This document shows, in pieces, positions 2,532-64,000 of a stretch of 64,000 bases of DNA. The first letter of the stretch is position 1, and each line of letters begins with the position of its first letter. The notes under the pieces are model-generated. The model was not told the origin of the DNA. It made no database searches and saw nothing but the letters and a program-made list of their open reading frames with translations. The position numbers and the translations under genes were made by a program. Origin of the DNA: Cyanophyceae cyanobacterium (lineage in GTDB: Bacteria > Cyanobacteriota > Cyanobacteriia > Cyanobacteriales > JBHJGN01); the NCBI GenBank assembly GCA_050331735.1, contig JBHJGN010000001.1, positions 37,869 to 101,868 of the forward strand, given 5' to 3'.

Positions 2532-4649
2532 CTAATACCTCCGTTCTCTTTCCCCTTTCCCCTTTTCCCGTTGCGGAGCAACAGTTTCCCTGCCCCCTCC
2601 CGCAGGGACCAACGGCCTAGACGCATGCACCAACGGCAGTAAGGGTCCGGTCTGTTCGGTGCCGTTAACTCCCAAATCGCTGTGGCACAGAAACACTCTT
2701 TCCTCGACCCGCCCAAGAACATCCTTGAGGATACGCTGCAAACGCTGTTGGTCCGCCTCTAGCTGCTCTTCCGATGTCCACCGATGCCCAGACCATCCCC
2801 TCAGAAACAGCGGTGCGGCAAACAACGTCGCCGCGCCGCCCTTCTCCCAAAGACTCGATGAGGCATCTAGCCAAAACTGCCAGCGGTGGGCGCTCCGCCG
2901 CGAGCGGTACTGAAAGATGGTGGCCATCATCACCGCGCCCTGGTCGCCAAACGAACGCGTTGGGCGTGGATTGGCGGTAATGGTTCCCCGGCGCAATAGC
3001 TGCACAAACTGGGCCACCGTTGCCGTTGCCGACTGGAAACTCGGCTCGTTCTGCCGCAGTCGGCGGTCTACCTCCCAGTAGTGCTGAGCGGTTTCCATCA
3101 GTTCGCGGAGGGCAGAGAGCTGGTCGTAGGCACAATAGCTGCTGAGAAACCGCTCGCTGGCCTGGTTCAACAACGCGATCGCACTGGTAGGCTTCGGTAG
3201 CGCTTTGGCCCATTTTAGCCACTCCACAATCTCTTGATAAGCAGCCGTAGCGCGGTGTCCGAGGCGGTCCCAGCGCGGAAATGCTTCGACCGCTAGCAGG
3301 CGCGGCTGTTCTGGATCGACCTGGTAGCAATAATCGGCTAGTAACCCAGCTCGAACGGGGTCTATCCTGGGTGCTAATCGTCCCGGCTCGGCATCGTTAT
3401 CTTGACTCAGCATTACTAGCATTTCAGCGACTGCATCTCGATCTACTAAACGTCCTAACCCCGGATACACCAGCGATAGTAACGTCAGCAGAGCGCGAAT
3501 CAGCGGCGAACTGGCCAGAGGACGCTGTTCGTTGAGCGGCTCAACGGGAATACCGTGACCAGAGAGAATTTCAATGAGGGTATAGCGAGCAATTTCGTCT
3601 AAACCAGGAGCAATAATGACAATTTCTGAGGGTTCGACGGCTCCGGTTGTCACTCCGTGGGCGATTGTCGCGGCAGTTTCGCGCAGCAGTTCGGCGCGAG
3701 AGATAGTCTGAATCGACTGCACCGAGGCTGGTAGACTGACGAGAATTGGCTCTGTGACCAAGGCAACAGCAGTTTGGGGCAAGTCATCCTTCTCTAAAGA
3801 AAGGGTTATCTGTTGACAGCGAGACGCTAAGCTCGCTAGGTACTCCGGATCGGCCCCTAAACCAAGCCGGACCTGAGAGTTGGGGTTATAGGTAAACACG
3901 CCCCAGGCTTTCTGGTCGAGCAGAAAATCAAACAAATCTTTAGCAATGGCCGGGTAGTCATCTACATCATCAGCAAAGACGGCCCGATAGCGATGGGAAA
4001 GATGTTGCTGATAGGTCGGGTCTGGAAGGAGGTAACGCCAGTACAGTTCGTACATCAGACCGTAGGTGAGCAAGCCTCGATGCAGGCACCACTGCCGCCA
4101 TGACCTCAGCAGCGCTTCCTCATCAAGAGCCACAGCAGGTGATCGCTCTTCGTCTAGTCCCTGCTCAAGAATAGTTCCAATCTGCTCGGCCTCAATTCCG
4201 CTGGCTCCCGCTAGCTGGAAGAGATCGAGTAAGCGGCGGACCAGGCGATATTGAGGAATGTCGGTAAGCTGAAGCTGCTCTAGCGGCTCTCGCCACAGTT
4301 GCGTTGCCAGTTCCTGCTCTGTTTCAGGACGCAGCCGGACCGGGAATTGAGCTTTCAGATTCAGCTTGTTAAATAGCAGCGGCCAAAACAAAATTACTTC
4401 ATCGGAAATAAATCCCAGAGGCGTTTTCGAGATCGCTGGATAACTTCCTTCGATGGCTGTCGAGAGGCGGTCGGCTAGGTTTTGACGACACTCGTCATTG
4501 GCTGCCAGAACTAACACCGCCGCTGTCATCTGCTTCGCGGGATGTTTGCTTCTGCTCCCCTTCACCCACCGACGAAACTCCTGCACCAACCGACTGGTTT
4601 TGCCAGTGCGCGTAGCTCCGGTAATCCAAACTGATAAAAGCAGCACCAT
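2532..4649 (-). CDS. UvrD/Rep-like superfamily 1 helicase-related P-loop protein, divergent motifs
   Basis: 705-aa ORF. N-terminal Walker A GATRTGKTS. Acidic box FADDVDDYP sits where SF1 helicases have DExQD. Length and layout resemble UvrD/AddB-type proteins. The last ~25 codons lie inside a repeat element. Confidence 0.5.
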   Translation of the reverse strand: MVLLLSVWITGATRTGKTSRLVQEFRRWVKGSRSKHPAKQMTAAVLVLAANDECRQNLADRLSTAIEGSYPAISKTPLGFISDEVILFWPLLFNKLNLKAQFPVRLRPETEQELATQLWREPLEQLQLTDIPQYRLVRRLLDLFQLAGASGIEAEQIGTILEQGLDEERSPAVALDEEALLRSWRQWCLHRGLLTYGLMYELYWRYLLPDPTYQQHLSHRYRAVFADDVDDYPAIAKDLFDFLLDQKAWGVFTYNPNSQVRLGLGADPEYLASLASRCQQITLSLEKDDLPQTAVALVTEPILVSLPASVQSIQTISRAELLRETAATIAHGVTTGAVEPSEIVIIAPGLDEIARYTLIEILSGHGIPVEPLNEQRPLASSPLIRALLTLLSLVYPGLGRLVDRDAVAEMLVMLSQDNDAEPGRLAPRIDPVRAGLLADYCYQVDPEQPRLLAVEAFPRWDRLGHRATAAYQEIVEWLKWAKALPKPTSAIALLNQASERFLSSYCAYDQLSALRELMETAQHYWEVDRRLRQNEPSFQSATATVAQFVQLLRRGTITANPRPTRSFGDQGAVMMATIFQYRSRRSAHRWQFWLDASSSLWEKGGAATLFAAPLFLRGWSGHRWTSEEQLEADQQRLQRILKDVLGRVEERVFLCHSDLGVNGTEQTGPLLPLVHASRPLVPAGGGRETVAPQREKGKGERERRY
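2538..2610. repeat. hairpin + G-tract modular repeat, single arm (C-rich on + strand)
   Basis: Sequence CCTCCGTTCTCTTTCCCCTTTCCCCTTTTCCC, then GTTGC-GGA-GCAAC (2570-2582), then TCCCTGC-ccccctcc-GCAGGGA (2587-2608). Same module type as at 16447, 57540 and 61412. Confidence 0.8.
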
Positions 4650-16446: not shown

Positions 16447-16601
16447 GCGCAGGGAAACGGGGAAATTGTCCCTGACGGGACGGGGAAAGGGCAAAAAGTT
16501 CCTCCGAACGGGGAAGGGGGAATTCGTCTCTGAACGGACAGAGAAAGAACACAGGGGTCAAGGAACCAGCTATCGGTCCTCTTTTCCCGCGCCGGCAGCG
16601 C
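16447..16601. repeat. full-length hairpin + G-tract composite repeat
   Basis: Fills the whole spacer between two convergent stop codons (TAG 16444-16446, TTA 16602-16604). G-rich modules include GTCCC-TGAC-GGGAC+GGGGAAAGGGCAAA (16468-) and GTTC-CTCC-GAAC+GGGGAAGGGGGAA (16498-). Core AAAGAACACAG is at 16544-16554. C-rich end is CTCTTTTCCC-GCGC-CGGCA-GCGC. Confidence 0.85.
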
Positions 16602-20382: not shown

Positions 20383-20389
20383 GGAGAAT

Positions 20390-20424
20390 GAGCAGTGAGC
20401 AGTTACCAGTTACCAGTTACCAGT
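20390..20424. repeat. heptamer-periodic tandem tract (GAGCAGT x2, TACCAGT x3)
   Basis: Five consecutive 7-mers ending in CAGT, 8 nt upstream of the hydrolase start codon. STRR-like. Confidence 0.8.
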
Positions 20425-20493
20425 GTAGTGCTTAGTCCTGGTATCTTGAGGATAGAATATTGTTGAGCGAAATACCATGAGTCTATTTGAGCA

Positions 20494-26012: not shown

Positions 26013-26039
26013 CCACCGCCCTTGGTGCGGGGAAAGGGA
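26013..26039. repeat. solo hairpin + G-tract module
   Basis: The 27-nt spacer between convergent stop codons (TAA 26010-26012, TTA 26040-26042) is CACC-GCCCTT-GGTG followed by CGGGGAAAGGGA. Confidence 0.6.
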
Positions 26040-27774: not shown

Positions 27775-27795
27775 CTTCCCTTTTCCCTTTCCCCC
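27775..27795. repeat. solo C-rich G-tract fragment of the repeat family
   Basis: CTTCCCTTTTCCCTTTCCCCC in the anmK / kinase intergenic region. Confidence 0.45.
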
Positions 27796-33450: not shown

Positions 33451-33492
33451 GTCCTCGGTCATTGGTCCTTTGTCCTTCGTTGTCCCAGTGAC
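33451..33492. repeat. heptamer-periodic tract (GTCCTCG GTCATTG GTCCTTT GTCCTTC GTTGTCC CAGTGAC)
   Basis: 7-nt periodicity starts 3 nt after the sigma factor stop codon. Confidence 0.6.
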
Positions 33493-34062: not shown

Positions 34063-34097
34063 CTGTCCTTTTCCCTTTCCCCCTTCCCCTTGACCCC
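34063..34097. repeat. C-rich fragment of the hairpin + G-tract repeat family
   Basis: CTGTCCTTTTCCCTTTCCCCCTTCCCCTTGACCCC, preceded by the partly complementary AAAGGAAAAGACA. Confidence 0.55.
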
Positions 34098-45833: not shown

Positions 45834-45878
45834 CAGCCGCAGCTTGGGAAAAGGGGAAGGGGTAAAGGGGAAAGGAAA
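45834..45878. repeat. G-rich fragment of the hairpin + G-tract repeat family
   Basis: GCCGCAGCTTGGGAAAAGGGGAAGGGGTAAAGGGGAAAGGAAAC, 140-185 nt upstream of the rpsB start codon. Confidence 0.6.
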
Positions 45879-47182: not shown

Positions 47183-48850
47183 ATGCGCCTTTTCTCTGTG
47201 CAGGTTTCTATCACTCAGGTGTGGCTCGGGGCGATCGCCTTTTGTCTAACGTGCCTGCTCTCAATCGCTCCCGTTGTCGGCCAAAGCCAGTCCCCCGCTC
47301 CGATTACCCTCGATGGTCGTCGTTTGTTTGAAGTCAGTTCTTCGGGAGGATACGACGCTCAAGAACGAGCCGCCGATGCCAATCGGCTGCTGCGGCAAAA
47401 GATTACCCAAGCCGAACCACCCGTCGAAGTAGAAATCGATCGAACAACCGAGCTGCCGGTGATTCGCGTTGATGGCGACCACCTCCTCACCGTCACTTTT
47501 GAAGATGCCCCCAGAGGCAGAAGCGTCCAGGAACAGGCCCAAATTTGGGCCACCGAGCTTCAGAACGCCATTGCTCGAGCGCAGCGCGAACGGACGAATA
47601 GTTATCTAGGGCGAGCCGTGCTGCTTGCTGCTGGGTATCTTGTCTTAGCTGCGGTGATGAGCTGGGGCTTAGGCTGGCTATGGCGCTACTGGCTACAGCC
47701 CAAGCTCGAACGAGATTCCCACTCTACTCCCAGTCAGGAGGACACTTCGCCTTCATCGGTCAGTGCAGAAATTGGGGCCCAGGTGCTCTTAACCCTAGTA
47801 CGAGGAGCAGTCTGGCTTTATGCCGTTATTGCTGCCAGCAAGCTCTTTCCCCAAACTCGGCAGTGGAGTCGGGATGTGGTAGACGTAATCGCTAACAGTT
47901 TGTTTGCGGATTTATTTTCTCTAGGCGATAGCTCGTACTCGGTTCTAGACCTATTAATCCTCATTGGGCTGTTGGCAGGACTAATTATTGTCGCCAGATC
48001 CGTCAGAAAAATTCTCAAGTCACGGGTTTTGAGCCTCACAGGACTGAATCGGGCAACCCAAGAAACCATTGCCTTAGTAGCCAACTACGGATTTATTTTT
48101 ATTGGCAGTCTTGTACTCTTACAGCTCTGGGGGCTAGATCTGAGTTCGCTCACGGTGTTCGCCGGGGTTTTAGGGGTTGGGGTTGGTTTAGGCATTCAGG
48201 GCATTGCTAAGGAATTTGTCAGCGGACTTGTGTTAATGCTGGAGCGCCCGATTCAGGTGGGGGATTTTGTCGAAATTGGCGAACTGATGGGAACCGTAGA
48301 GCGGATCAGCGTACGCTCGACAGAAATCCGGACTCTCGATCAGGTTTCACTGATTCTGCCTAACTCCCGCTTTCTAGAAACGGAGGTGATTAACTGGAGC
48401 CATCACTCTTCGGTGTCGCGGCTGCGGCTTCCCGTTGGAGTTGCCTATGGCTCCAATTTAACTACGGTACGTACGGCGCTAATGAATGCAGCCAAAGAAC
48501 ACAGCGACGTGCTCTCCTCCCCCGCACCGAGAGTCTTCTTCCTTGGGTTTGGCGATAGTTCTCTTGATTTTGAGCTGTTAGTATGGATTGCTGAACCCCG
48601 TAAGCAGTTTCAGATCAAAAGCGATCTTTATTTTCGTATCGAAGCGATTCTGCGCCATCGCGGTGTGGAAATTCCCTTTCCTCAAAGAGATCTACACGTT
48701 CGCGGTCGCTTACCGATAGACGTGTCCCCCGAGCTAGTACAGTCCTTAACCGAACTCACCACTGGATTGACTAATTGGCTCAATCACCAGTCTAACGGGG
48801 CTGCTGGACCATCGAGATTAGGGGTTAGGGATGGTCAAGACGACAACTAA
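47183..48850 (+). CDS. mechanosensitive ion channel family protein (MscS-like)
   Basis: 555 aa. Signal/TM N-terminus. MscS core ERPIQVGDFVEIGELMGTVERISVRSTEIRTLDQVSLILPNS and C-terminal alpha/beta domain. Confidence 0.85.
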   Translation: MRLFSVQVSITQVWLGAIAFCLTCLLSIAPVVGQSQSPAPITLDGRRLFEVSSSGGYDAQERAADANRLLRQKITQAEPPVEVEIDRTTELPVIRVDGDHLLTVTFEDAPRGRSVQEQAQIWATELQNAIARAQRERTNSYLGRAVLLAAGYLVLAAVMSWGLGWLWRYWLQPKLERDSHSTPSQEDTSPSSVSAEIGAQVLLTLVRGAVWLYAVIAASKLFPQTRQWSRDVVDVIANSLFADLFSLGDSSYSVLDLLILIGLLAGLIIVARSVRKILKSRVLSLTGLNRATQETIALVANYGFIFIGSLVLLQLWGLDLSSLTVFAGVLGVGVGLGIQGIAKEFVSGLVLMLERPIQVGDFVEIGELMGTVERISVRSTEIRTLDQVSLILPNSRFLETEVINWSHHSSVSRLRLPVGVAYGSNLTTVRTALMNAAKEHSDVLSSPAPRVFFLGFGDSSLDFELLVWIAEPRKQFQIKSDLYFRIEAILRHRGVEIPFPQRDLHVRGRLPIDVSPELVQSLTELTTGLTNWLNHQSNGAAGPSRLGVRDGQDDN

Positions 48851-49070: not shown

Positions 49071-49100
49071 AAGCTAAGAGCTAAAAGCTCTTAGCTTTTC
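49071..49100 (+). terminator. intrinsic-terminator-like hairpin between mscS-like gene and convergent SBP gene
   Basis: 11-bp perfect stem AAGCTAAGAGC (49071-49081) / GCTCTTAGCTT (49087-49097), 5-nt loop, then TTC (the run TTTT includes the stem end). Confidence 0.5.
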
Positions 49101-55423: not shown

Positions 55424-55465
55424 AAACAGTGACCAGTGGCCCATCAACAATCAACAATTAACAGC
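55424..55465. repeat. heptamer-periodic tract (AAACAGT GACCAGT GGCCCAT CAACAAT CAACAAT TAACAGC)
   Basis: Begins immediately after the M50 protease stop codon (TAG 55421-55423) and ends 5 nt before the next ATG. Confidence 0.65.
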
Positions 55466-56601: not shown

Positions 56602-57540
56602 GTGGAGCACAGCGATTTGACGGATACAGTTATTCCGATGGCCCCAGAGGGGTTTAAATCCGGATTCGTCGGAATTGTGGGACGACCCAACGTGGGGAAA
56701 TCGACTCTCATGAATCAACTGGTGGGGCAGAAAATCGCCATCACCTCTCCCGTTGCTCAGACGACGCGCAACCGCCTCAGAGGAATTTTGACCACCGACC
56801 GCGCCCAGCTCATCTTTGTCGATACCCCCGGAATCCACAAACCCCACCACGAACTCGGTAAGGTGCTGGTTAAAAACGCCCAGAGAGCGATCGCCTCGGT
56901 GGATGTGGTGCTGTTGGTTGTTGACAGTACCGGGGTTGCCGGAGGCGGCGATCGCTTTATTGTCGATCTGCTCAAGCAGTCTTCTGTTCCGGTGATTCTT
57001 GGTCTCAATAAGTCGGATCTCCAGCCAGCCGAGTATCACCCCATCGATGATACCTATCGGCAAATTGCCGAGGAACACAACTGGTCTATTGTCAAGTTTT
57101 CCGCCTTGACAGGAGCCGGACTAGCATCGCTTCAGCAACTCCTGAGCGACCGTCTCGAACCAGGCCCCTATTACTATCCTCCCGATTTAGTGACTGACCA
57201 GCCAGAGCGGTTTATTATGGGCGAACTGATTCGAGAACAAATCCTGTTGCTGACCCGTCAAGAAATTCCCCATTCAGTCGCCATCACCGTAGAAAAAGTT
57301 GAAGAAACCCCCCGCATTACCCGAGTTTTTGCCGCCATCAACGTTGAAAGAGACTCTCAAAAAGGCATTCTCATTGGTAAAAAAGGCAGTATGCTCAAAG
57401 CCATTGGCACTCAAGCAAGAGAGCAAATGCAAAAGCTCATTGCCGGAGATGTCTATCTTGAGCTATTTGTCAAAGTTCAGCCGAAGTGGAGACAGTCGCG
57501 GTTACGCCTAGCCGAACTCGGCTACCGAGTTGAAGACTAG
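56602..57540 (+). CDS. era: GTPase Era
   Basis: G1 GRPNVGKSTL, G3 DTPGIH, G4 NKSD, C-terminal KH domain. GTG 56602 or ATG 56638 as the start. Confidence 0.92.
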   Translation: MEHSDLTDTVIPMAPEGFKSGFVGIVGRPNVGKSTLMNQLVGQKIAITSPVAQTTRNRLRGILTTDRAQLIFVDTPGIHKPHHELGKVLVKNAQRAIASVDVVLLVVDSTGVAGGGDRFIVDLLKQSSVPVILGLNKSDLQPAEYHPIDDTYRQIAEEHNWSIVKFSALTGAGLASLQQLLSDRLEPGPYYYPPDLVTDQPERFIMGELIREQILLLTRQEIPHSVAITVEKVEETPRITRVFAAINVERDSQKGILIGKKGSMLKAIGTQAREQMQKLIAGDVYLELFVKVQPKWRQSRLRLAELGYRVED

Positions 57541-57761
57541 CGCCGCAGGCGCGGGAAAAGGGGAAAAAGTTGCTCCGCAACGGGGAAAGGGGAAATTATT
57601 GAGCTTATTTCTTAGCTCTGTGTTCTTTTGCTGTCCCGCACCGGACAGATTTCCCCTTCCCCGTCCCAACCGGGACAATTTCCCCTTTTCCCTTTCCCCA
57701 TCGCGGAGCGATTTCCCCCTTCCCCGTCCCAACCGGGACAATTTGCCCGCGCCTGCGGTGC
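57540..57761. repeat. full-length hairpin + G-tract composite repeat (largest copy)
   Basis: Starts on the G of the era stop codon. G-rich arm 57540-57596, core containing CTGTGTTCTTT (57618-57628), C-rich arm 57631-57761. There is an internal direct duplication (57649-57681 / 57711-57745). Terminal hairpins are GCGCC-GCA-GGCGC and GCGCC-TGC-GGTGC. Confidence 0.9.
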
Positions 57762-57835
57762 TTCTTTACCAAAATTAATTATTTAAATGGTATTTCCGGG
57801 CGTAATCCTGGGTACGTTAGCTCTAGCTTCAAGGG

Positions 57836-60800
57836 TTGCTAGCTTATCGTTGGCTCAGGAAATTCGCTGTGCAAAAGAAATCTCTCACCGGAAAAACGAC
57901 GATTCCAGAATATCTCGACCAAGCAGAGTTCAAGGGAGAAGTTTTGCTTCAACTTGGACAAATGCTTCAGATGTTGAAGCAAGGGAATCACCCCGAATGC
58001 CGCAAACAGCTACAGGAGCAATGTCAGCAGCTATCAGAGCTTGGCCAAGAAGCCAAGCTTTATCAGTGGGTGACGCTGCTGCAAACGGCTCAAAGAGCGA
58101 TCGCCAATCGCGACAATCCGTTTCAGGAAACGGCGAAAAGAATTATCAGAGATATCAAACGGGCGTTAGAAAAAGTAATAGCAGGCTGCGGTGATGAAAT
58201 TGAACTCACTCAAGAACTGCAAGCTCTTGCTCCTCTTGAAAAGAGTTTAGAAGAGCCGCAATCAGTATCCAAACCTTCTGAAGGGGAGGCTAGCTCCCCC
58301 TCTGATGAGCTGCTCTCGCTGTTTGCGGATGTCTCTGATGAGGCTCGAACTGTCATCGAAGCGCCGCCTGACGACTTCGGCGACTACTGGCTTGAGGCAG
58401 CATCAGCCGCCGATCCTCCAGAATCAGCGGCTGAATTGGCCAGCTTGTTTAGCTCCTCTGAAGCGACTGAGGATGCGGCAACTCCGTCTTTAACCGACGA
58501 GAGCAGCTTATTTGGCGAGACGGAAGCGGAATTGAGTTCGTCCGATGAAATTCTTGAGCTGTTTGAGCCTGAGCCATCGAGCCAGCAAACAGACTCAGCC
58601 GATGCCCCGGTAGAGTTAGCAAGCCTGTGGGAGGATGAAGACGAACCAGAGTTATTAGCTGCCGCTCAGCCAGAGCCGTTGTTGTCGCCAGACCTGACAA
58701 CCGACGATTTCACCGTCCGTGATTCTGAATCGATGCCGCCGTCAGCAATACTAGCCCGTCAAGATTGGGAACTCGTTTACTATGGTCTTGACGAGCTAGA
58801 GGCTTTGCTCGAGCAAACCCCTCAAACCTGGTTTGCGTCTTTTGATGAGTTAGAAGCGTCGCTAGCAGGCGACTCCAGCGAGCAGGCGAATTTCTTGGAG
58901 TCGTTAGGGAGCCCCCTCGAGGCGCTGCCTGATAGCGAGCGTCAGCTACTAGACGAGGGGACTACCGAGCTTCAGAAACTGCTCGAGGAGGCCAGCCAAG
59001 TAACGCCACAGCCTCAATCGGCCAGTAGCCAACCGCTGGCGACAGCGTTTGAACAAACCATGCGGGTGCCAGTGAAGCAGTTGGATACTTTAAATAACCT
59101 CATTGGGGAACTGGTCGTCAACCGCAATACCCTCGAGCAAGATCATGGCAGGCTGCGGCAGTTTTTAGACAGTTTACTGCATTACGTCCAGGGTCTGAGC
59201 GATATTGGCGGTAGAATGCAGGAACTCTACGAGCGATCGCTGCTGGAGGGAGCACTGCTAGCAAGCCGTCACGGAGAGCGCAACGATTGGTCTGAACCGA
59301 GCGCTAGCAGTAGCGATCGCAGTCTTAATGCCCTAGAGATGGACAGATTTACGGGCTTTCATACCCTCTCCCAAGAGATGATTGAACTGATCGTGCGCGT
59401 CCGAGAGTCTGCTTCGGATATCCAGTTTTTGGTAGACAATACCGAACAGGTTTCTCTATCCCTCCAGCAAATTACCTCTCAGCTTCAAGAAGGTCTCAAT
59501 AAAGCGCGCATGGTGCCTTTTTCTCAAACGGCAGACCGTTTACCCAGAGCCGTTCGGGAAATTTCGCGGCGCTTAAATAAGCAAGCGCAGCTCAAAGTAG
59601 AAGGACGAGATGTTCTCATCGATAAGATGCTCCTCGAGCAGCTCTACGATCCGATGACTCATTTGGTGAACAACGCCATTACTCACGGCATCGAATCGCC
59701 AGAAGAACGCCAGCAGCAAGGGAAACCTCTCTGCGGTCAGGTGACCGTTAGTGCTTTTCTCCAGGGAAATCAAACGATCATTTCCATTGCCGATGATGGC
59801 GCGGGCATTGATTCGCGCAAAGTCAAAGCAAAAGCCTTAGAAAAAGGACTGCTCTCCCCGGCCAAGGCTAAAGCTCTGGCGCATCAAGATTGCTACGAAT
59901 TTTTGTTTCATCCCGGTTTTAGCACCAAAGACAAAGCGGACGACTTCGCCGGTCGCGGAGTGGGGATGGATGTAGTGCGGACCAGTCTAGAGGCCATTCG
60001 CGGCAAGATTGGCATTGATTCTACTCTGGGGAAAGGCACGACCTTTACCGTTCGTCTGCCGCTAACGCTCAGCATTTGTAAGGCTCTCTGCTGTTTGAGC
60101 AATCAGTTCCGCATTGCTTTTCCCATGGATGGCGTAGAAGACATGCAGGACTACGCCGCGTCAGATATTCAGACCGATGCAGAGGGTCAGCCGTGCGTTC
60201 CGTGGCGCAATACCCTCCTGCCTTTCCGTTCTCTCAAAGAACTGCTGTCCTATCGTCGCTCGGTTGGTCGGAGAATGAGAGGCACTCAGTCAGAAGACAC
60301 CGTGTCGATTGTCGTCCTGCGAGGAGCGGGAACCTTACTCGCTGTCGAGGTCGAACGGGTACTTGGGGAGCAGGAAATCGTCATTAAGCAAATTGAAGGC
60401 CCCATTCCTAAGCCTTTGGGCATTGCCGGAGCAACTGTACTTGGAGACGGTAGCGTCATGGCCATTGGTGATGTGCTGGAATTAATTGAAATCGCTCAAG
60501 GAAATCACAGCCTAGAGGGGCAGCTCTGGCAGAAGACCATTATTTATGCTCAACCAGAGGCGATCGTCGATCAAAAACCAGCGGTGTTAATTGTTGACGA
60601 CTCCATTACTGTTCGAGAACTGTTGTCGATCAGCTTTAGTAATGCCGGATATCGCGTTGAGCAAGCACGAGACGGCTCAGAAGCCTGGGAAAAGCTTCGC
60701 TCTGGACTAGCGTGCGATATCATTTTCTGCGACGTAGAAATGCCGAGAATGAACGGTCTAGAACTACTCTCCTGTCTGCAAAAAGACGAACGGTTAGCGT

Positions 60801-61411
60801 CGATTCCGGTGGCCTTACTGACCTCTCGCGGTGCAGCCCGTCATCGTCAAGTTGCCGTTGAGCTTGGAGCTAGAGGATACTTCACCAAACCTTACACCGA
60901 GAAAGATTTGTTGGATGCGGCGCAAAAGATGATTGCTGGAGAAGTGTTAGTCTCTGGCAGTCCTCGATCTAAATCAACAGCAGATAAACCGCCAGAAGAC
61001 GCAGAACCACCGGCAGAACCAACCGTGCTCATTGTCGATGACTCAGTGATGGTGCGAGAAATGCTGTCGATGACGTTTAAAAAAGCCGGTTATCAAGTGG
61101 AACAAGCCAGAGATGGACAAGATGCCCTGGAAAAGCTGCGCTCTAGCTTGCCCATCGATCTCGTTTTCTGCGACATCGAGATGCCGAGAATGAACGGACT
61201 AGACCTGTTAGCCCGTCTTCAGCAAGATCCCACGCTTTCTCAGCTCCCCGTAGCGATGATTACTTCCAGAGGAGCCGAACGTCACCGCAATATTGCCCAA
61301 GAACGAGGAGCTAAGGGCTATTTTACTAAACCCTACATCGAGAAGACCCTCTTAGAAGCAGCGAAGGAATTACTCAAAGGAGAAAACCTCATGGCGCAAG
61401 CAGCCGATTAA
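57836..61411 (+). CDS. CheA-like hybrid histidine kinase (dimerisation-HATPase-CheW-REC-REC), PilL-C/PixL-like, no recognisable Hpt
   Basis: 1191-aa ORF, start uncertain (TTG 57836, GTG 57869, ATG 57962). H-kinase dimerisation segment MRVPVKQLDTLNNLIGELVV. HATPase N-box HLVNNAITHGIE and G-boxes DDGAGID, GRGVGMD. CheW-like domain. Two receiver domains (60584-60943, 61025-61384). Confidence 0.85.
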   Translation: MLAYRWLRKFAVQKKSLTGKTTIPEYLDQAEFKGEVLLQLGQMLQMLKQGNHPECRKQLQEQCQQLSELGQEAKLYQWVTLLQTAQRAIANRDNPFQETAKRIIRDIKRALEKVIAGCGDEIELTQELQALAPLEKSLEEPQSVSKPSEGEASSPSDELLSLFADVSDEARTVIEAPPDDFGDYWLEAASAADPPESAAELASLFSSSEATEDAATPSLTDESSLFGETEAELSSSDEILELFEPEPSSQQTDSADAPVELASLWEDEDEPELLAAAQPEPLLSPDLTTDDFTVRDSESMPPSAILARQDWELVYYGLDELEALLEQTPQTWFASFDELEASLAGDSSEQANFLESLGSPLEALPDSERQLLDEGTTELQKLLEEASQVTPQPQSASSQPLATAFEQTMRVPVKQLDTLNNLIGELVVNRNTLEQDHGRLRQFLDSLLHYVQGLSDIGGRMQELYERSLLEGALLASRHGERNDWSEPSASSSDRSLNALEMDRFTGFHTLSQEMIELIVRVRESASDIQFLVDNTEQVSLSLQQITSQLQEGLNKARMVPFSQTADRLPRAVREISRRLNKQAQLKVEGRDVLIDKMLLEQLYDPMTHLVNNAITHGIESPEERQQQGKPLCGQVTVSAFLQGNQTIISIADDGAGIDSRKVKAKALEKGLLSPAKAKALAHQDCYEFLFHPGFSTKDKADDFAGRGVGMDVVRTSLEAIRGKIGIDSTLGKGTTFTVRLPLTLSICKALCCLSNQFRIAFPMDGVEDMQDYAASDIQTDAEGQPCVPWRNTLLPFRSLKELLSYRRSVGRRMRGTQSEDTVSIVVLRGAGTLLAVEVERVLGEQEIVIKQIEGPIPKPLGIAGATVLGDGSVMAIGDVLELIEIAQGNHSLEGQLWQKTIIYAQPEAIVDQKPAVLIVDDSITVRELLSISFSNAGYRVEQARDGSEAWEKLRSGLACDIIFCDVEMPRMNGLELLSCLQKDERLASIPVALLTSRGAARHRQVAVELGARGYFTKPYTEKDLLDAAQKMIAGEVLVSGSPRSKSTADKPPEDAEPPAEPTVLIVDDSVMVREMLSMTFKKAGYQVEQARDGQDALEKLRSSLPIDLVFCDIEMPRMNGLDLLARLQQDPTLSQLPVAMITSRGAERHRNIAQERGAKGYFTKPYIEKTLLEAAKELLKGENLMAQAAD

Positions 61412-61609
61412 GTCCCTTCGGGACGGGAAAAGGGGAAACAGTTCCTGCGGAACGGGGAAGGGGGAAAGGAAAATTCCTCCGGGACGGGGAAAGAACACAG
61501 AATCAAGGACTAGGCTGAGTAACCCCCTTTACCCTTTTCCCCTTCCCCTTTTCCCGCGCCTGTGGCGCTATTCCCTTTACCCTTTACCCTTTACCCGCGC
61601 CGACGGCGC
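61412..61609. repeat. full-length hairpin + G-tract composite repeat
   Basis: Starts 1 nt after the TAA of the cheA-like gene. Modules GTCCC-TTC-GGGAC+GGGAAAAGGGGAAA and GTTCC-TGC-GGAAC+GGGGAAGGGGGAAA. Core AAAGAACACAG at 61490-61500. C-rich arm with two terminal hairpins GCGCC-TGT-GGCGC (61556-61568) and GCGCC-GAC-GGCGC (61597-61609), separated by (CCCTTTA)x3. Confidence 0.9.
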
Positions 61610-61650
61610 TAAAATAGCGACAGACGAAAATTCAACAGATCGTTAACACA

Positions 61651-63240
61651 ATGCTTCTCAAAATCTCTCAGAAACAATTTTTGGCGTGTTCTTTTTTCCT
61701 GGGGTTGCTTTTTAGCCCATCCGTCAGAGCTGAAGAGATCGAAATTAAAGTTGGCATTGTTCAGCGCTTTGGAGATGAAGAGACTGATGAACTGACCATC
61801 GCCTCTCCTCAAGGAGATACGCTCACTCTCCGGGGTGAAGCGGTGGAGCTAGAGGCCAACCAAGTCGAACTAGAAGTGGAAATGCGGCCTTTGGCTATAC
61901 CGGCGGTGGAAGAACGGTTGGTGCTCAGCGATCACGCCACCTTTGAAACAGCAGAATACAGCGCTCAACAGTGGGAAGCCCTTGGCATTGAAGTAGAAGT
62001 CACTCAGCCCGAACGCTGGCAGGTCTGGGCCAAACGAGACGTGTATGAAACTCCGCTGCTGCGTCGGTGGCTGTTGCAGAGTCTCCAGGCTCAAGGATAC
62101 GCCGAGCCGTATTTAGATACTCAGGTTGTTTTAGAGAAGCCGCAGATTATTTTAAATGTTGATGGCGATCGCACGGCGGTCAGCGAGCTAGAAATTACCG
62201 CAGCAGGGGCGTTGATCCAGGTGAAAGAAGCCCCGGAGCAGAAAACTCACCTTTATCCAGGCTCTCTCAAGCTTCAGCCCAATGCCTACGGCACGTTTAC
62301 CTTAGTTAATGAAGTCCCCTTAGAAAGCTACCTGCGGGGCGTGGTTCCTCACGAAATTGGTCCAGCGGCCCCGAAAGGAGCCGCCGAAGCGCAGGCTATT
62401 ATTGCTCGGACCTATGCCCTCCGGAATCTGCGGCGGTTTCAAGCGGACAACTATGAGCTGTGCGCGAGCGTTCACTGCCAGGTTTATTTTGGGTTAGCCG
62501 ACACTCATCCCCAGGCCGACCAGTCGATCGCCGCGACCCGAGGCTTGGTGTTAACCTATCAAAATGAACTAGTAGACGCGCTGTATTCCTCTACTACCGG
62601 CGGGATTACGGCCCCGTTCAGCGATATTTGGAACGGCAGCGATCGCCCCTACCTTAAAGCCGTAATCGACTCGCCTCAGCCGGTTTGGGATCTTTCTCAA
62701 CGCTCCTTGGCTGACGAACAGGCGTTTCGGGACTTTATTTCCCTCCAGCAGGGATTCAATGAAACGGGCCGAAACGTTTTTCGCTGGAGCAAGCAGGGCG
62801 ACCTCGAGCAGCTCAACGAAGATTTACAGAAGTATCTAGAGAAAACTAATCATCCTCTGGCTGACTTCAACACCATTGAGAGCCTGGAGATCGTCGAGCG
62901 ATCGCCCTCGGGCCGAATTCTCAAGCTGATCGTGCAAACGGATCGGGGTTTGCTCGAACTGCATAAAACTGAGGTTCGCAGTGCTTTGGGTCCGCCCCGC
63001 AGTACGCTATTCTACATCGAGCCGATTTACGACGAAGCGCAAGTCCTCAAAGGATACACCTTTATTGGTGGTGGTTTCGGTCACGGGGTAGGCTTAAGTC
63101 AGTTTGGTTCCTACAATCTGGCCAATCTCGGCTGGTCTGCTGAGCAAATTTTGTCTTTCTACTACCCCGGCACCACTCTCCAGTCTCTTGACGAATCTGT
63201 TGTCTTTTGGCGGGCAGAAAAACCAAAAGAGCTAAATTAG
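61651..63240 (+). CDS. SpoIID/LytB domain protein
   Basis: 529 aa, signal peptide. SpoIID core YLRGVVPHEIGP....EA.KAQAI.ARTYAL, CAS.HCQVY.G, VL.Y....V.ALY.S..GG.T. Confidence 0.8.
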   Translation: MLLKISQKQFLACSFFLGLLFSPSVRAEEIEIKVGIVQRFGDEETDELTIASPQGDTLTLRGEAVELEANQVELEVEMRPLAIPAVEERLVLSDHATFETAEYSAQQWEALGIEVEVTQPERWQVWAKRDVYETPLLRRWLLQSLQAQGYAEPYLDTQVVLEKPQIILNVDGDRTAVSELEITAAGALIQVKEAPEQKTHLYPGSLKLQPNAYGTFTLVNEVPLESYLRGVVPHEIGPAAPKGAAEAQAIIARTYALRNLRRFQADNYELCASVHCQVYFGLADTHPQADQSIAATRGLVLTYQNELVDALYSSTTGGITAPFSDIWNGSDRPYLKAVIDSPQPVWDLSQRSLADEQAFRDFISLQQGFNETGRNVFRWSKQGDLEQLNEDLQKYLEKTNHPLADFNTIESLEIVERSPSGRILKLIVQTDRGLLELHKTEVRSALGPPRSTLFYIEPIYDEAQVLKGYTFIGGGFGHGVGLSQFGSYNLANLGWSAEQILSFYYPGTTLQSLDESVVFWRAEKPKELN

Positions 63241-63277: not shown

Positions 63278-64000
63278 ATGTCTGAACCACTTCTTGAAGT
63301 CCCTTACGTAGCGCTTCCGCCAACTCAGGACGAGCTACCGTGCGATGACGATATTCCGATGGAAACTCAGCGCCACAAATTCCAGATGGATTTACTCATC
63401 GAGCAACTGCTGCTGTGGCTGGAGACGCGAGACAACGGCTATGTTAGTGGCAATATGTTTGTTTACTACAGCATGGCGCAGATTCGCAATCAGGACTTTC
63501 GGGGGCCGGATTTTTTTGCCGTTTTAGGCGTTCCTAAAAAAGAACGTAAAAGCTGGGTCGTTTGGGAAGAAGGCAAGGGCCCCGATGTGGTCATTGAACT
63601 GTTGTCTGACAGCACCAGAGATCAAGACAAGACGGAGAAAAAAGCCATCTATCAAAACCAGATGCGCGTTCCAGAATACTTCTGGTTCGATCCGTTTAAC
63701 CCTCAAGACTGGGCTGGTTTTGCCTTACGAGATGGAGTTTACGAACCCCTGGTGACAGACTGCCAACGCTTTGTGAGTCAGCAGTTACAGTTAGCTTTGG
63801 TTCAGTGGGACGGAACCTATAGAGGCGTGAATACCACTTGGCTGCGATGGGCAACCTTAGCTGGAGAACTACTGCCGACAGAGCGAGAAAAAGCGACGCA
63901 AGAAGAGCAGCGGGCCGAGCAAGCTGAACAGCGGGCCGAGCAAGCTGAACAGCGGGCTAGAGAGTTAGCCGCACAACTGCGAGCAATGGGCATCGAACCA
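63278..64000 (+). CDS. Uma2 family (DUF820) endonuclease, 3' end beyond the window
   Basis: Not on the ORF track because no stop lies inside the window. ATG 63278 is in frame to 64000 (241 codons). Core motifs YVSGNMFVYY, PDFFAVLGVPKKERKSWVVWEEGKGPDVVIELLS.ST...D...K...Y, VPEYFWFDP. Tail EQRAEQAEQRAEQAEQRARELAAQLRAMGIEP. Confidence 0.8.
   Translation, partial: MSEPLLEVPYVALPPTQDELPCDDDIPMETQRHKFQMDLLIEQLLLWLETRDNGYVSGNMFVYYSMAQIRNQDFRGPDFFAVLGVPKKERKSWVVWEEGKGPDVVIELLSDSTRDQDKTEKKAIYQNQMRVPEYFWFDPFNPQDWAGFALRDGVYEPLVTDCQRFVSQQLQLALVQWDGTYRGVNTTWLRWATLAGELLPTEREKATQEEQRAEQAEQRAEQAEQRARELAAQLRAMGIEP

Follow-up and report, generated by a model that had tools for sequence, protein, structure and literature searches.

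A lineage-specific cyanobacterial repeat family of tandem heptamers and small hairpins

Tandem heptamer arrays have been known in cyanobacteria since 1990 and tiny hairpin repeats since 2008; to our knowledge, no function or mode of spread has been established for either. The arrays were reportedly described by Mazel et al. in 1990 as the short tandemly repeated repetitive (STRR) heptamers of filamentous cyanobacteria. The hairpin repeats, SDR1-8 of Nostoc punctiforme and its relatives, are small dispersed repeats (SDRs) said to have been characterized by Elhai et al. in 2008 as small hairpins with compensatory changes, often embedded in tandem heptameric repeats or in mini-transposons. Here we describe a family of hairpin and heptamer repeats found at eight loci in a 64,000-nucleotide stretch (the window) of contig JBHJGN010000001.1, from a Cyanophyceae cyanobacterium. 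The copy taken as reference, hereafter the flagship copy, lies at 57540-57761, directly behind the gene for the GTPase Era. The family is a real, non-coding, lineage-specific cyanobacterial repeat of the "tandem heptamer array plus small hairpin" kind. It is not a new type of element; it is a variant of the known cyanobacterial heptamer-array and small-hairpin repeats.

The SDRs are the closest known system. Like them, the elements described here are very small intergenic hairpin repeats with compensatory stem changes, embedded in heptamers and found in a HIP1-rich cyanobacterium (49 HIP1 sites in the window). Both are untagged sequences resembling repetitive extragenic palindromes (REP), the class to which SDRs are assigned in PMC3733652. 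The SDR unit, by its published description, is 21-27 nucleotides (nt) long and has a family-specific conserved sequence, whereas the hairpin here measures 13-14 nt. The constant coupling to GGGGAAA and the polar composite with its unique core set the present family further apart. Finally, SDRs are reported solely from Nostocaceae (PMC5861425; they are also cited in PMC4390886), whereas the present host, judged by its Era relatives, is apparently not Nostocacean.

The heptamer component belongs to the STRR class. Heptamer repeats have been described in Nostoc PCC 7120 (bioRxiv 10.1101/2022.06.06.494920), and TAACTGA heptamers in Beggiatoaceae and cyanobacteria (PMC4679880). The resemblance lies in the intergenic head-to-tail 7-nt units, two to four per array, and in the 7-bp steps by which copy number changes in relatives. 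STRR and TAACTGA arrays consist of simple direct repeats and are often found upstream of start codons, whereas those of the present family are short, are interrupted by hairpins, have inverted arrays as partners and for the most part lie downstream of stop codons.

Elements of the REP, bacterial interspersed mosaic element (BIME) and REPIN type, together with their RAYT (TnpA-REP) transposases, have been treated in several studies (PMC3733652, PMC3116915, PMC6006769). They share with the present family the form of extragenic palindromic mosaics directly behind genes, a candidate role as mRNA 3′ stabilisers or terminators, and the keeping of structure rather than sequence. The initial annotation of this locus, made from the sequence alone, had offered a REP/BIME-like class as one possibility; that placement fails on unit size, terminal tag and orientation pattern. 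REP units are palindromes of 20-40 bp with a GTAG or CGTC tag (PMC3733652); the units here are 13-14 nt long, the tag is absent, and the hairpins are flanked by A-rich sequence on the 5′ side (AAATT, AAAAA, AAACA) and by GGGG on the 3′ side. BIME units alternate in orientation, with fixed linker motifs between them, whereas here all modules of an arm point the same way and orientation is inverted once, at the core. A CRISPR array was rejected since modules abut, there are no unique spacers and the repeats vary; integron attC-like sites were rejected for lack of an integrase and for their different architecture.

No Rfam family matched the window at gathering score, the sub-threshold matches being to microRNA-precursor models only (29 bits versus 137), which reflect a generic long hairpin. 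A plasmid BLAST search gave no match. No description of the family was found in the searchable literature, and queries with the heptamer strings returned primer sequences only. These negatives agree with the novelty claimed in the initial annotation, which had also placed the family in the right neighbourhood, close to cyanobacterial small dispersed repeats and miniature inverted-repeat transposable elements (MITEs).

Hairpin-heptamer modules and homologous composites

The 222-bp flagship block is non-coding, the open reading frames (ORFs) that overlap it being short and spurious (e.g., 57530..57778). As originally annotated, it starts on the last base of the era stop codon: the era ORF spans 56602..57540, its TAG occupies 57538-57540, and the G of TAG is base 1 of the hairpin GCGCC GCA GGCGC. 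The positions first assigned to hairpins, G-runs and core were likewise all correct. The flagship copy consists of two modules that are G-rich on the plus strand and five inverted ones, placed around the core CTGTGTTCTTT, each unit being a 13-14 nt hairpin with a 5-bp stem followed by two to three GGGGAAA-type heptamers.

Throughout the family, a module in G-rich orientation (27-31 nt) comprises an A-rich run, which is the tail of the preceding heptamer, the hairpin, and two to three heptamers reading GGGGAAA, GGGAAAA or GGGGGAA. The 5-bp stem conforms to [G/A][C/T][C/T/G][C/G]C and the loop has 3 or 4 nt, mostly 3. On the C-rich strand the same module appears as a C-run, the hairpin and a T-tract. 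The module had been conceived as a hairpin followed by two G-runs. The hairpins are present, but Tandem Repeats Finder (TRF) reports period-7 tandem repeats at 2548, 27776, 45846, 57679, 61525 and 61573; the G-runs are therefore tandem heptamers, of two to three units. We also considered whether the hairpins might substitute for whole heptamers and so preserve their phase. This was rejected, as module start-to-start distances range from 22 to 36 nt and are not multiples of 7.

The module pattern occurs well beyond chance expectation. Perfect 5-bp hairpins abutting a G3-5 A2-4 run are found 12 times in the window, against a mean of 0.88 and a maximum of 4 in 100 second-order Markov randomisations of the window, and 10 of the 12 belong to the family. 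A covariance model (R1), built from 17 modules, yielded 16 matches with E<0.005 and 20 with E<0.05 in a search of the 64-kb window, all of them within the eight loci originally listed. All 11 perfect occurrences of the five stem classes (see below) adjoin heptamers, none standing alone. The eight loci are nonetheless unlike: three are homologous composites, two carry one or two hairpin modules, and the other three are heptamer arrays with no convincing hairpin.

The second composite copy (W16; 16447..16601, plus strand) fills the entire spacer of convergent histidine-kinase and TerB-domain genes, its left terminal hairpin being truncated at the stop codon. The third (W61; 61412..61609, plus strand) lies directly 3′ of the stop codon of a cheA-like gene and is made up of three G-modules, the core, C-rich heptamers (among them (CCCTTTA)3) and a pair of GCGCC hairpins. 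Once co-oriented, the composites at 57540, 16447 and 61412 align on one backbone, with 61% identity in the alignment. The backbone opens with the terminal GGCGC hairpin and GGGAAA, a GTCCC module, a GT[T/C]CC module and a degenerate hairpin ending GGGAC(A)G; it continues with the core AAAGAACACAG, a variable spacer of 20-30 nt, C-rich heptamers, and the right end CCYCTTTTCCC GCGCC NGN RGCGC T. The 25-nt right end, CCYCTTTTCCCGCGCCNGNRGCGCT, is kept in all three copies. So is the 11-mer core, whose recurrence in the other two composites had been noted from the start: AAAGAACACAG, the complement of the flagship CTGTGTTCTTT, lies at 16544 and 61490, with one extra occurrence inside a coding region at 48494 that shows no other similarity. 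Because the three copies share one backbone, the composite must have been copied to several places, and we conclude that the three are homologous and dispersed. In its general layout, the purine-rich arm is built of several co-oriented modules; after it come the core AAAGAACACAG, the variable spacer and one to five inverted modules ending in CTTTTCCC GCGCC NNN GGCGC. The polarity of the family is thus defined: purine-rich modules, core, pyrimidine-rich modules.

Since the core AAAGAACACAG is on its minus strand (57618..57628), the flagship copy is oriented opposite (minus) to those at 16447 and 61412. Its left end is the plus-strand terminal hairpin GCGCC GCA GGCGC (57540..57552), which pairs with 57749-57761 in the long fold described below and is part of an inverted repeat (I2; 21 nt, 90% complementary). 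The plus-strand heptamer pair GGGAAAA GGGGAAAA, in G-rich orientation, follows at 57553..57567, and then the module GTTGC TCC GCAAC with GGGGAAA GGGGAAA (57569..57595, plus strand; R1 match, 37.1 bits), whose 13-nt hairpin (57569-57581) is identical to the one at 2570-2582. The hairpin GAGCT TATTTCTT AGCTC (57601..57618, plus strand), in the spacer, forms the tip of the long fold and is peculiar to the flagship copy. On the other side of the core lies the minus-strand, core-proximal hairpin CTGTCC (6-nt loop) GGACAG (57631..57648), whose homologue in the other two composites is the arm before the core, ending in GGACAG and GGGAC.

The remainder of the flagship copy (57649..57761) is a four-module arm, G-rich on the minus strand. 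Read on that strand it comprises GCACC GCA GGCGC with GGGCAAA, GTCCC GGTT GGGAC with heptamers, ATCGC TCC GCGAT with three heptamers, and GTCCC GGTT GGGAC, again with heptamers. The corresponding hairpins are GCGCC/GGTGC, with one G-T wobble (57749-57761), GTCCC/GGGAC (57726-57739 and 57663-57676) and ATCGC/GCGAT (57700-57712). The arm includes a direct duplication, in the form of a 36-nt direct repeat with 94% identity and a 63-bp period; tandem periods of 29 and 41 nt were also seen with TRF. Modules duplicate locally.

Among the other loci, 2538..2610 (minus strand) holds two modules of the same orientation (GTCCC TGC GGGAG and GTTGC TCC GCAAC), each with heptamers. A single degenerate module, CCACC GCCCTT GGTGC with GGGGAAAGGGA (26013..26039, plus strand; R1 18.1 bits), exactly occupies the 27-bp spacer that separates two convergent stop codons. 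Arrays of heptamers that lack a convincing hairpin occur at 27775..27795 (minus strand; R1 14.2 bits), at 34063..34097 (minus strand; array only, with a canonical four-run G-quadruplex motif on that strand) and at 45834..45878 (plus strand; 4.3 units), in the divergent spacer between rpsB and an AI-2E-transporter gene. The hairpin upstream of the last array is weak, and the array itself is a canonical G-quadruplex motif.

Paired stem changes, folding and G-quadruplex potential

In the initial annotation, stem sequences had been seen to differ between modules while staying complementary, and this was taken to argue for selection on structure. The first part is borne out. In 16 hairpins, 74 of the 80 stem cells are Watson-Crick pairs, and the five perfect stem classes (GCGCC, GTCCC, GTTCC, GTTGC and ATCGC) are linked to one another by a total of no fewer than six paired changes. 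Shuffling of the 3′ arms among ten unique hairpins reached the observed pairing in 1/20000 cases. As the R1-fitted alignment mis-registers three hairpins with 4-nt loops, covariation was counted on explicit arms and on a gap-free alignment of the thirteen hairpins with 3-nt loops. In this alignment, 95.4% of the cells are paired (72.2 +/- 3.7% when shuffled) and four of the five pairs have changed on both sides; the covariation score reaches 0.692, compared with 0.247 in shuffled controls (0/500) and 0.17 at most in slid registers. The stem covariation is therefore real, the hairpins being kept through paired changes.

The second part does not follow. The copies being paralogues, independent stem-change events are few, about six, and covariation among paralogues is by itself no proof of selection on structure, because inverted duplication preserves palindromes and because template-switch correction of quasi-palindromes can give rise to paired changes at a single stroke, with no selection involved; single events of this kind are reportedly documented by Ripley in 1982 and by Dutra and Lovett in 2006.

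A separate observation concerns the loops. Among the hairpins outside the GCGCC class, the 3-nt loop is T-N-C in all eight cases (five TCC, two TGC and one TTC), with variation at the middle base alone (e.g., 57574-57576, 57705-57707, 61417-61419, 61446-61448 and 2575-2577). On the C-rich strand these are G-N-A loops closed by C:G, and C-GNA-G is said to be the motif of exceptionally stable DNA mini-hairpins studied by Hirao and Yoshizawa in the 1990s. The sample being small, the pattern is a lead only.

The flagship copy folds at -128.8 kcal/mol as RNA (z = -11) and at -66.7 kcal/mol as DNA (z = -8.5). The fold is a long imperfect hairpin in which two right-arm modules are taken up by pairing with the left arm, leaving the others to form mini-hairpins. 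The long imperfect palindrome recognized initially is thus a property of this copy, but not of the family: z values are -2.4 to -3.0 for W61 and -1.4 to -1.6 for W16, which has four G-modules against one C-module. What is conserved across copies is the set of mini-hairpins, heptamers, core and terminal hairpin, and not the long stem.

The G-runs also raise the possibility, voiced in the initial annotation for a G-quadruplex or i-motif versus a cruciform, of a switch in which a G-quadruplex, i-motif or triplex would compete with hairpins or a cruciform so as to regulate transcription or replication. We consider this very improbable. By the canonical definition of a G-quadruplex motif (at least 3 G in each of four runs, loops of 1-7 nt), the window has five, four of which fall in the family (34073, 45846, 61532 and 61573), where 0.7 would be expected; five further motifs have a hairpin inside a long central loop, and the heptamer tracts are homopurine mirror repeats, as read directly from the sequence. 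All this describes a potential of the sequence only. The four G-runs noted in the flagship left arm (57553-57592) do exist, but with a central loop of 18 nt they form no canonical motif and qualify only if a loop of that length is allowed. Moreover, the stable duplex and the long hairpin (-129 kcal/mol) would compete strongly, and a switch would leave the covarying stems and the core unexplained.

Repeats in relatives and in other genomes

The Era protein of the window is 100% identical to one from a "Cyanophyceae cyanobacterium" MAG (metagenome-assembled genome), and Era homologues, along with the HIP1 sites, assign the window to the cyanobacteria. By Era, the closest named relatives are Coleofasciculus, Xenococcaceae, Gloeothece and Pleurocapsa. 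The nearest relatives compared here have about 83-85% Era identity. Their genes follow the order DUF2996, TM2, DUF3110, SIS, M50, AstE, era, cheA, spoIID, and no window-type element was found in their era/cheA or cheA/spoIID spacers. The era/cheA spacer of three of them (L001, L002 and L206) carries AGCTTTT and CCCTGCC arrays and a nested GGGGCGGGG...CCCCGCC hairpin block; that of L204 carries GGGCATT, AGGTTGA and TCCCCTA arrays. The cheA/spoIID spacer measures about 20-75 bp in L001, L002, L205 and L206 and 239 bp in the window; in L204 it has 174 bp, with (TTGGGCA)n heptamers. The comparison of orthologous spacers called for in the initial annotation thus returned different repeats in place of identical elements, but the spacers cannot be aligned with those of the window since Era identity is only about 85%.

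The relatives can be compared among themselves. Between L001 and L002 the difference amounts to exactly one 7-bp unit plus, within an array, a block of 85 bp. L205 (10990-11060) is devoid of the nested hairpin block of ~40-55 nt found in L001 (10990-11090), L002 and L206, the missing piece reading GGGGCGGGG...TTCGGG...CCCGAA...CCCCGCC and lying between the AGCTTTT and CCCTGCC arrays. Across the clade, then, these spacers change quickly in their heptamer arrays and in the hairpin blocks embedded there, and the window family is the local version of such repeats.

In metagenomic arrays containing GGGGAAAGGGGAAAGGGG, a perfect hairpin of at least 5 bp abuts the array on the 5′ side in 1/124 cases and on the 3′ side, taken as control, also in 1/124. 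The hairpin as a general companion of (GGGGAAA)n arrays was accordingly rejected; given that 11/11 stem-class hairpins adjoin heptamers in the window, the coupling is lineage-specific. Half of the metagenomic arrays lay inside spurious open frames of the crude ORF finder used, and among the others no clear bias of orientation relative to genes was seen. One strong R1 match was obtained beyond the window, in an unrelated Cyanobacteriota MAG (L066, 36.1 bits), where a GCGCC TAC GGCGC hairpin stands in front of a purine-then-pyrimidine paired array. A scan of the genome collection, of which the genome of the window is not part, with GGCGCGGGAAAAGGGGAA gave mostly chance matches, plus three single cyanobacterial ones and an unrelated repeat of Chthoniobacterales. 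The latter is abundant and dispersed in a verrucomicrobial MAG (contig set CAXTSM01; L079:1-880, L041 and some 10 other loci) and recurs every ~230 bp; it contains a GGGCGCGGGAAAAGGGGAA...TTCCCCTTTTCCCGCG palindrome with the G-then-C order of the window, and its resemblance to the cyanobacterial purine-first heptamer palindromes may be convergent.

These comparisons bear on the idea that the family is a neutral by-product of mutation: slippage would expand the heptamers, template switching would perfect the palindromes and strand-switch duplication would invert the arms, with neither mobility nor function. Heptanucleotide repeats are the most abundant long simple repeats in prokaryotes, and polymerase slippage has been proposed as their origin (PMC4679880). 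The exact 7-bp unit separating L001 from L002 fits this scheme, as do the many unrelated heptamer arrays of the relatives' spacers and of the window itself, which has arrays of the classic cyanobacterial type at 20389, 33451 and 55443. Template switching, moreover, supplies paired stem changes in a single event. Slippage, on the other hand, does not account for three dispersed copies having an 11-nt core, module order and right end in common, nor does the scheme explain the strict coupling of hairpin to heptamers, so rare in metagenomic arrays, or the 20-to-0 polarity of paired arrays reported below. On balance, we regard mutational processes alone as an unlikely explanation.

Gene 3′ ends, array polarity and a possible terminator role

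In seven of the eight cases, the locus follows one or more stop codons. The elements occupy 4/10 convergent spacers, 3/29 tandem spacers and 1/10 divergent ones (convergent versus the rest, 4/39; Fisher p = 0.044), and their ends fall 0-1 nt from stop codons at 57540, 16447, 16601, 61412 and on both sides of 26013-26039. The family thus prefers gene 3′ ends.

Paired arrays are also strictly polar. Whenever a G-rich and a C-rich array occur within 120 nt of each other in the unrelated metagenome loci, the G-rich one comes first, by 20 to 0 (about 14 loci; examples in L084-L203), and in the window the purine arm is first in 8/8 (e.g., 57553-57725 and 61425-61596). In every paired array counted, the (GGGGAAA)n arm is 5′ and the (TTTCCCC)n arm 3′. 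The bias is real and no artefact of strand choice, since the G-then-C order reads alike on both strands and C-then-G is distinct from it. We have not seen this polarity described for such arrays.

A-tract, hairpin, U-tract is the polarity of bidirectional intrinsic terminators. The elements resemble them in being purine- and A-rich on the 5′ side and pyrimidine- and U-rich on the 3′ side of both strands, in lying between convergent genes, and in having, on the C-rich strand, GC-rich hairpins followed by T-rich tracts, as in GCAAC TTTTTCCCC and GGGAC AATTTCCCC. Matches to a terminator consensus coincide with element hairpins at 57749-57761 (then TTCTTTACC) and 61556-61568 and, on the minus strand, at 57569-57581 (then TTTTTCCCC) and 16501-16517. 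The resemblance is incomplete: the elements have multiple 5-bp hairpins, with U-tracts that are short and interrupted, where such terminators have a single strong hairpin and a long U-tract, and they are repeated and homologous between loci.

Taken together, these features suggest, at somewhat less than an even chance, that the family is an SDR/REP/MITE-like dispersed repeat acting as a weak bidirectional terminator or 3′-end structure. The element would spread non-autonomously, by means of machinery encoded outside the window, in a manner that depends on the hairpin or at least preserves it. Lodged behind a gene, it would then be transcribed into the 3′ untranslated region. RNA polymerase arriving from either side would copy the purine arm first and the pyrimidine arm second; the hairpins of the pyrimidine arm would precede U-rich tracts, and this arm could pair back onto the purine arm. 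By virtue of arm order, U-tracts and back-pairing, the element would act as a weak, additive terminator or 3′-protecting structure in both directions.

A number of observations weigh against this interpretation. The count of terminator-like structures in the 57300-62000 interval is 10, not significantly above shuffled sequence (6.3 +/- 2.8), and the U-tracts are short (3-5 U), some beginning 2 nt past the stem. Only the flagship copy folds far better than its shuffles, and any function of the long hairpin is therefore not conserved across copies. The 45834 locus sits in a divergent promoter region. As to spread, a Pfam scan of 50 substantial ORFs in the window detected no transposase and no Y1/RAYT protein. 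The TA, TAA and TTA triplets flanking the elements are the stop codons of neighbouring genes, so that no target duplication can be claimed, and the nearest relative, at 85% Era identity, is too distant for an empty-site comparison. The sample, finally, is 64 kb of one genome.

The same positional data could be read as the mark of terminators that evolved in place, each spacer having built its own array under selection and the likeness between loci reflecting convergence on a favoured module. The location at gene 3′ ends, the polarity of paired arrays and the order of hairpin and T-tract on the C-rich strand would all be accounted for, and the era/cheA spacer of the relatives also carries structured repeats. 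The shared core AAAGAACACAG, module order and 25-nt right end, however, indicate homology and not convergence; the element at 45834 occupies a divergent spacer; and the short, unstructured cheA/spoIID spacer of L001, L002, L205 and L206 implies that no terminator is required there. For these reasons we hold independent origin in each spacer to be improbable.

The dispersal of the composites is what one would expect of a purely selfish MITE, that is, a deletion derivative of an insertion sequence whose termini (GCGCC NNN GGCGC GGGAAAAG...) are bound by a transposase encoded elsewhere, effects on RNA being incidental. Bacterial MITEs such as Nezha in cyanobacteria, Correia/NEMIS, ERIC and RUP have been reviewed (PMC3733652). 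Like these, the elements are non-coding, lie beside coding sequences, have a robust RNA fold and fall in the 70-300 bp range, the three homologous copies measuring 155, 198 and 222 bp. The MITE-like nature proposed in the initial annotation is supported by size, dispersal and, in the flagship copy, by terminal inverted repeats of 21 nt (90% complementary; 15-30 bp in MITEs), but no target duplication is demonstrable and no transposase is encoded in the window; in addition, the left end of W16 is truncated, and W61 begins with GTCCC and not GCGCC. The conserved right end CCYCTTTTCCCGCGCCNGNRGCGCT, the TA/TAA/TTA flanks and the presence of the same terminal module in the L066 MAG speak for mobility of this kind. 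Those flanks are nonetheless stop codons, none of the 50 ORFs is a transposase, and no parent insertion sequence was identified. Furthermore, the architecture is modular, copies varying in module number and type with 61% identity, which recent cut-and-paste or copy-and-paste products would not, and single modules and heptamer-only loci are dispersed without termini. A selfish MITE is consequently a minority hypothesis, to which we attach a rather low probability.

A bolder extension of the favoured reading, that of a dispersed repeat with weak terminator activity, would hold that the module is a self-propagating micro-element, smaller than SDRs, that builds bidirectional terminators behind genes, and that purine-first paired arrays form a widespread and unrecognised class of terminators or 3′-end structures in Rho-less cyanobacteria and some other phyla. 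We think this quite unlikely. If it were true, STRR-type heptamer repeats would gain a function, and the conserved loop, T-N-C or, on the C-rich strand, G-N-A with a closing C:G pair, would mark single-strand recognition or exceptional stability. The family offers handles for questions of function and spread: its module is short and its covariation measurable, the unique core of the composite can be followed through a genome, and the purine-first polarity turns into a testable terminator hypothesis. The polarity rule and the terminator-like reading of the module are, in our opinion, the most valuable leads.

The elements have consequences for annotation as well. The 50 ORFs scanned correspond to ordinary genes of the chromosome, among them those for ABC transporter components, rpsB, tsf, frr, priA, recG, a sigma factor gene, era and the cheA-like hybrid kinase gene, and the elements are flanked by housekeeping genes of this sort. 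The elements can both create spurious ORFs, such as 57530..57778, and extend real genes. An example of the latter is a 705-aa ORF without Pfam match (2532..4649, minus strand), whose last ~25 codons (..LVPAGGGRETVAPQREKGKGERERRY*) and stop are read from the 2538-2610 element; this element has either replaced the natural C-terminus of the protein or extends the ORF artificially. In MAG assemblies, the repeats are likely breakpoints.

Some features in the vicinity of the elements and elsewhere in the spacers deserve mention. A stretch just upstream of the called start of the cheA-like gene (57787-57870), reading ATGGTA...GGGTACGTTA...TGGCTCAGGAA, is conserved with distant relatives (L002:11211-11310; L204:11085-11150) and forms the fixed boundary of the variable repeats on the right-hand side. 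It may correspond to a leader peptide, a 5′ untranslated element or the true N-terminus of the gene product. The clade is rich in small hairpin repeats: a 745-bp spacer (L002:17719-18464) is packed with diverse small GC-rich hairpins, including GGGGGGCGAATGCGATTCGCCCCCC, CCGGAACTCGTTCCGG and GGGGGGTCCCCCC, and also contains GTCAATT TTC AATTGAC followed by GGGTAAAGGG heptamers. In the window, the classic heptamer arrays consist of five CAGTGAG/CAGTTAC units (20389-20425), four GGTCCTT-like units (33451-33477) and three ATCAACA units (55443-55463), and a palindromic AAGCTAAGAGCTAAAAGCTCTTAGCTT lies in a convergent spacer (49071-49100). Near the window end, a perfect 21-nt tandem repeat, CAGCGGGCCGAGCAAGCTGAA, is present in 2.4 copies (63908-63957) and is probably in-frame coding sequence of a gene running off the window.

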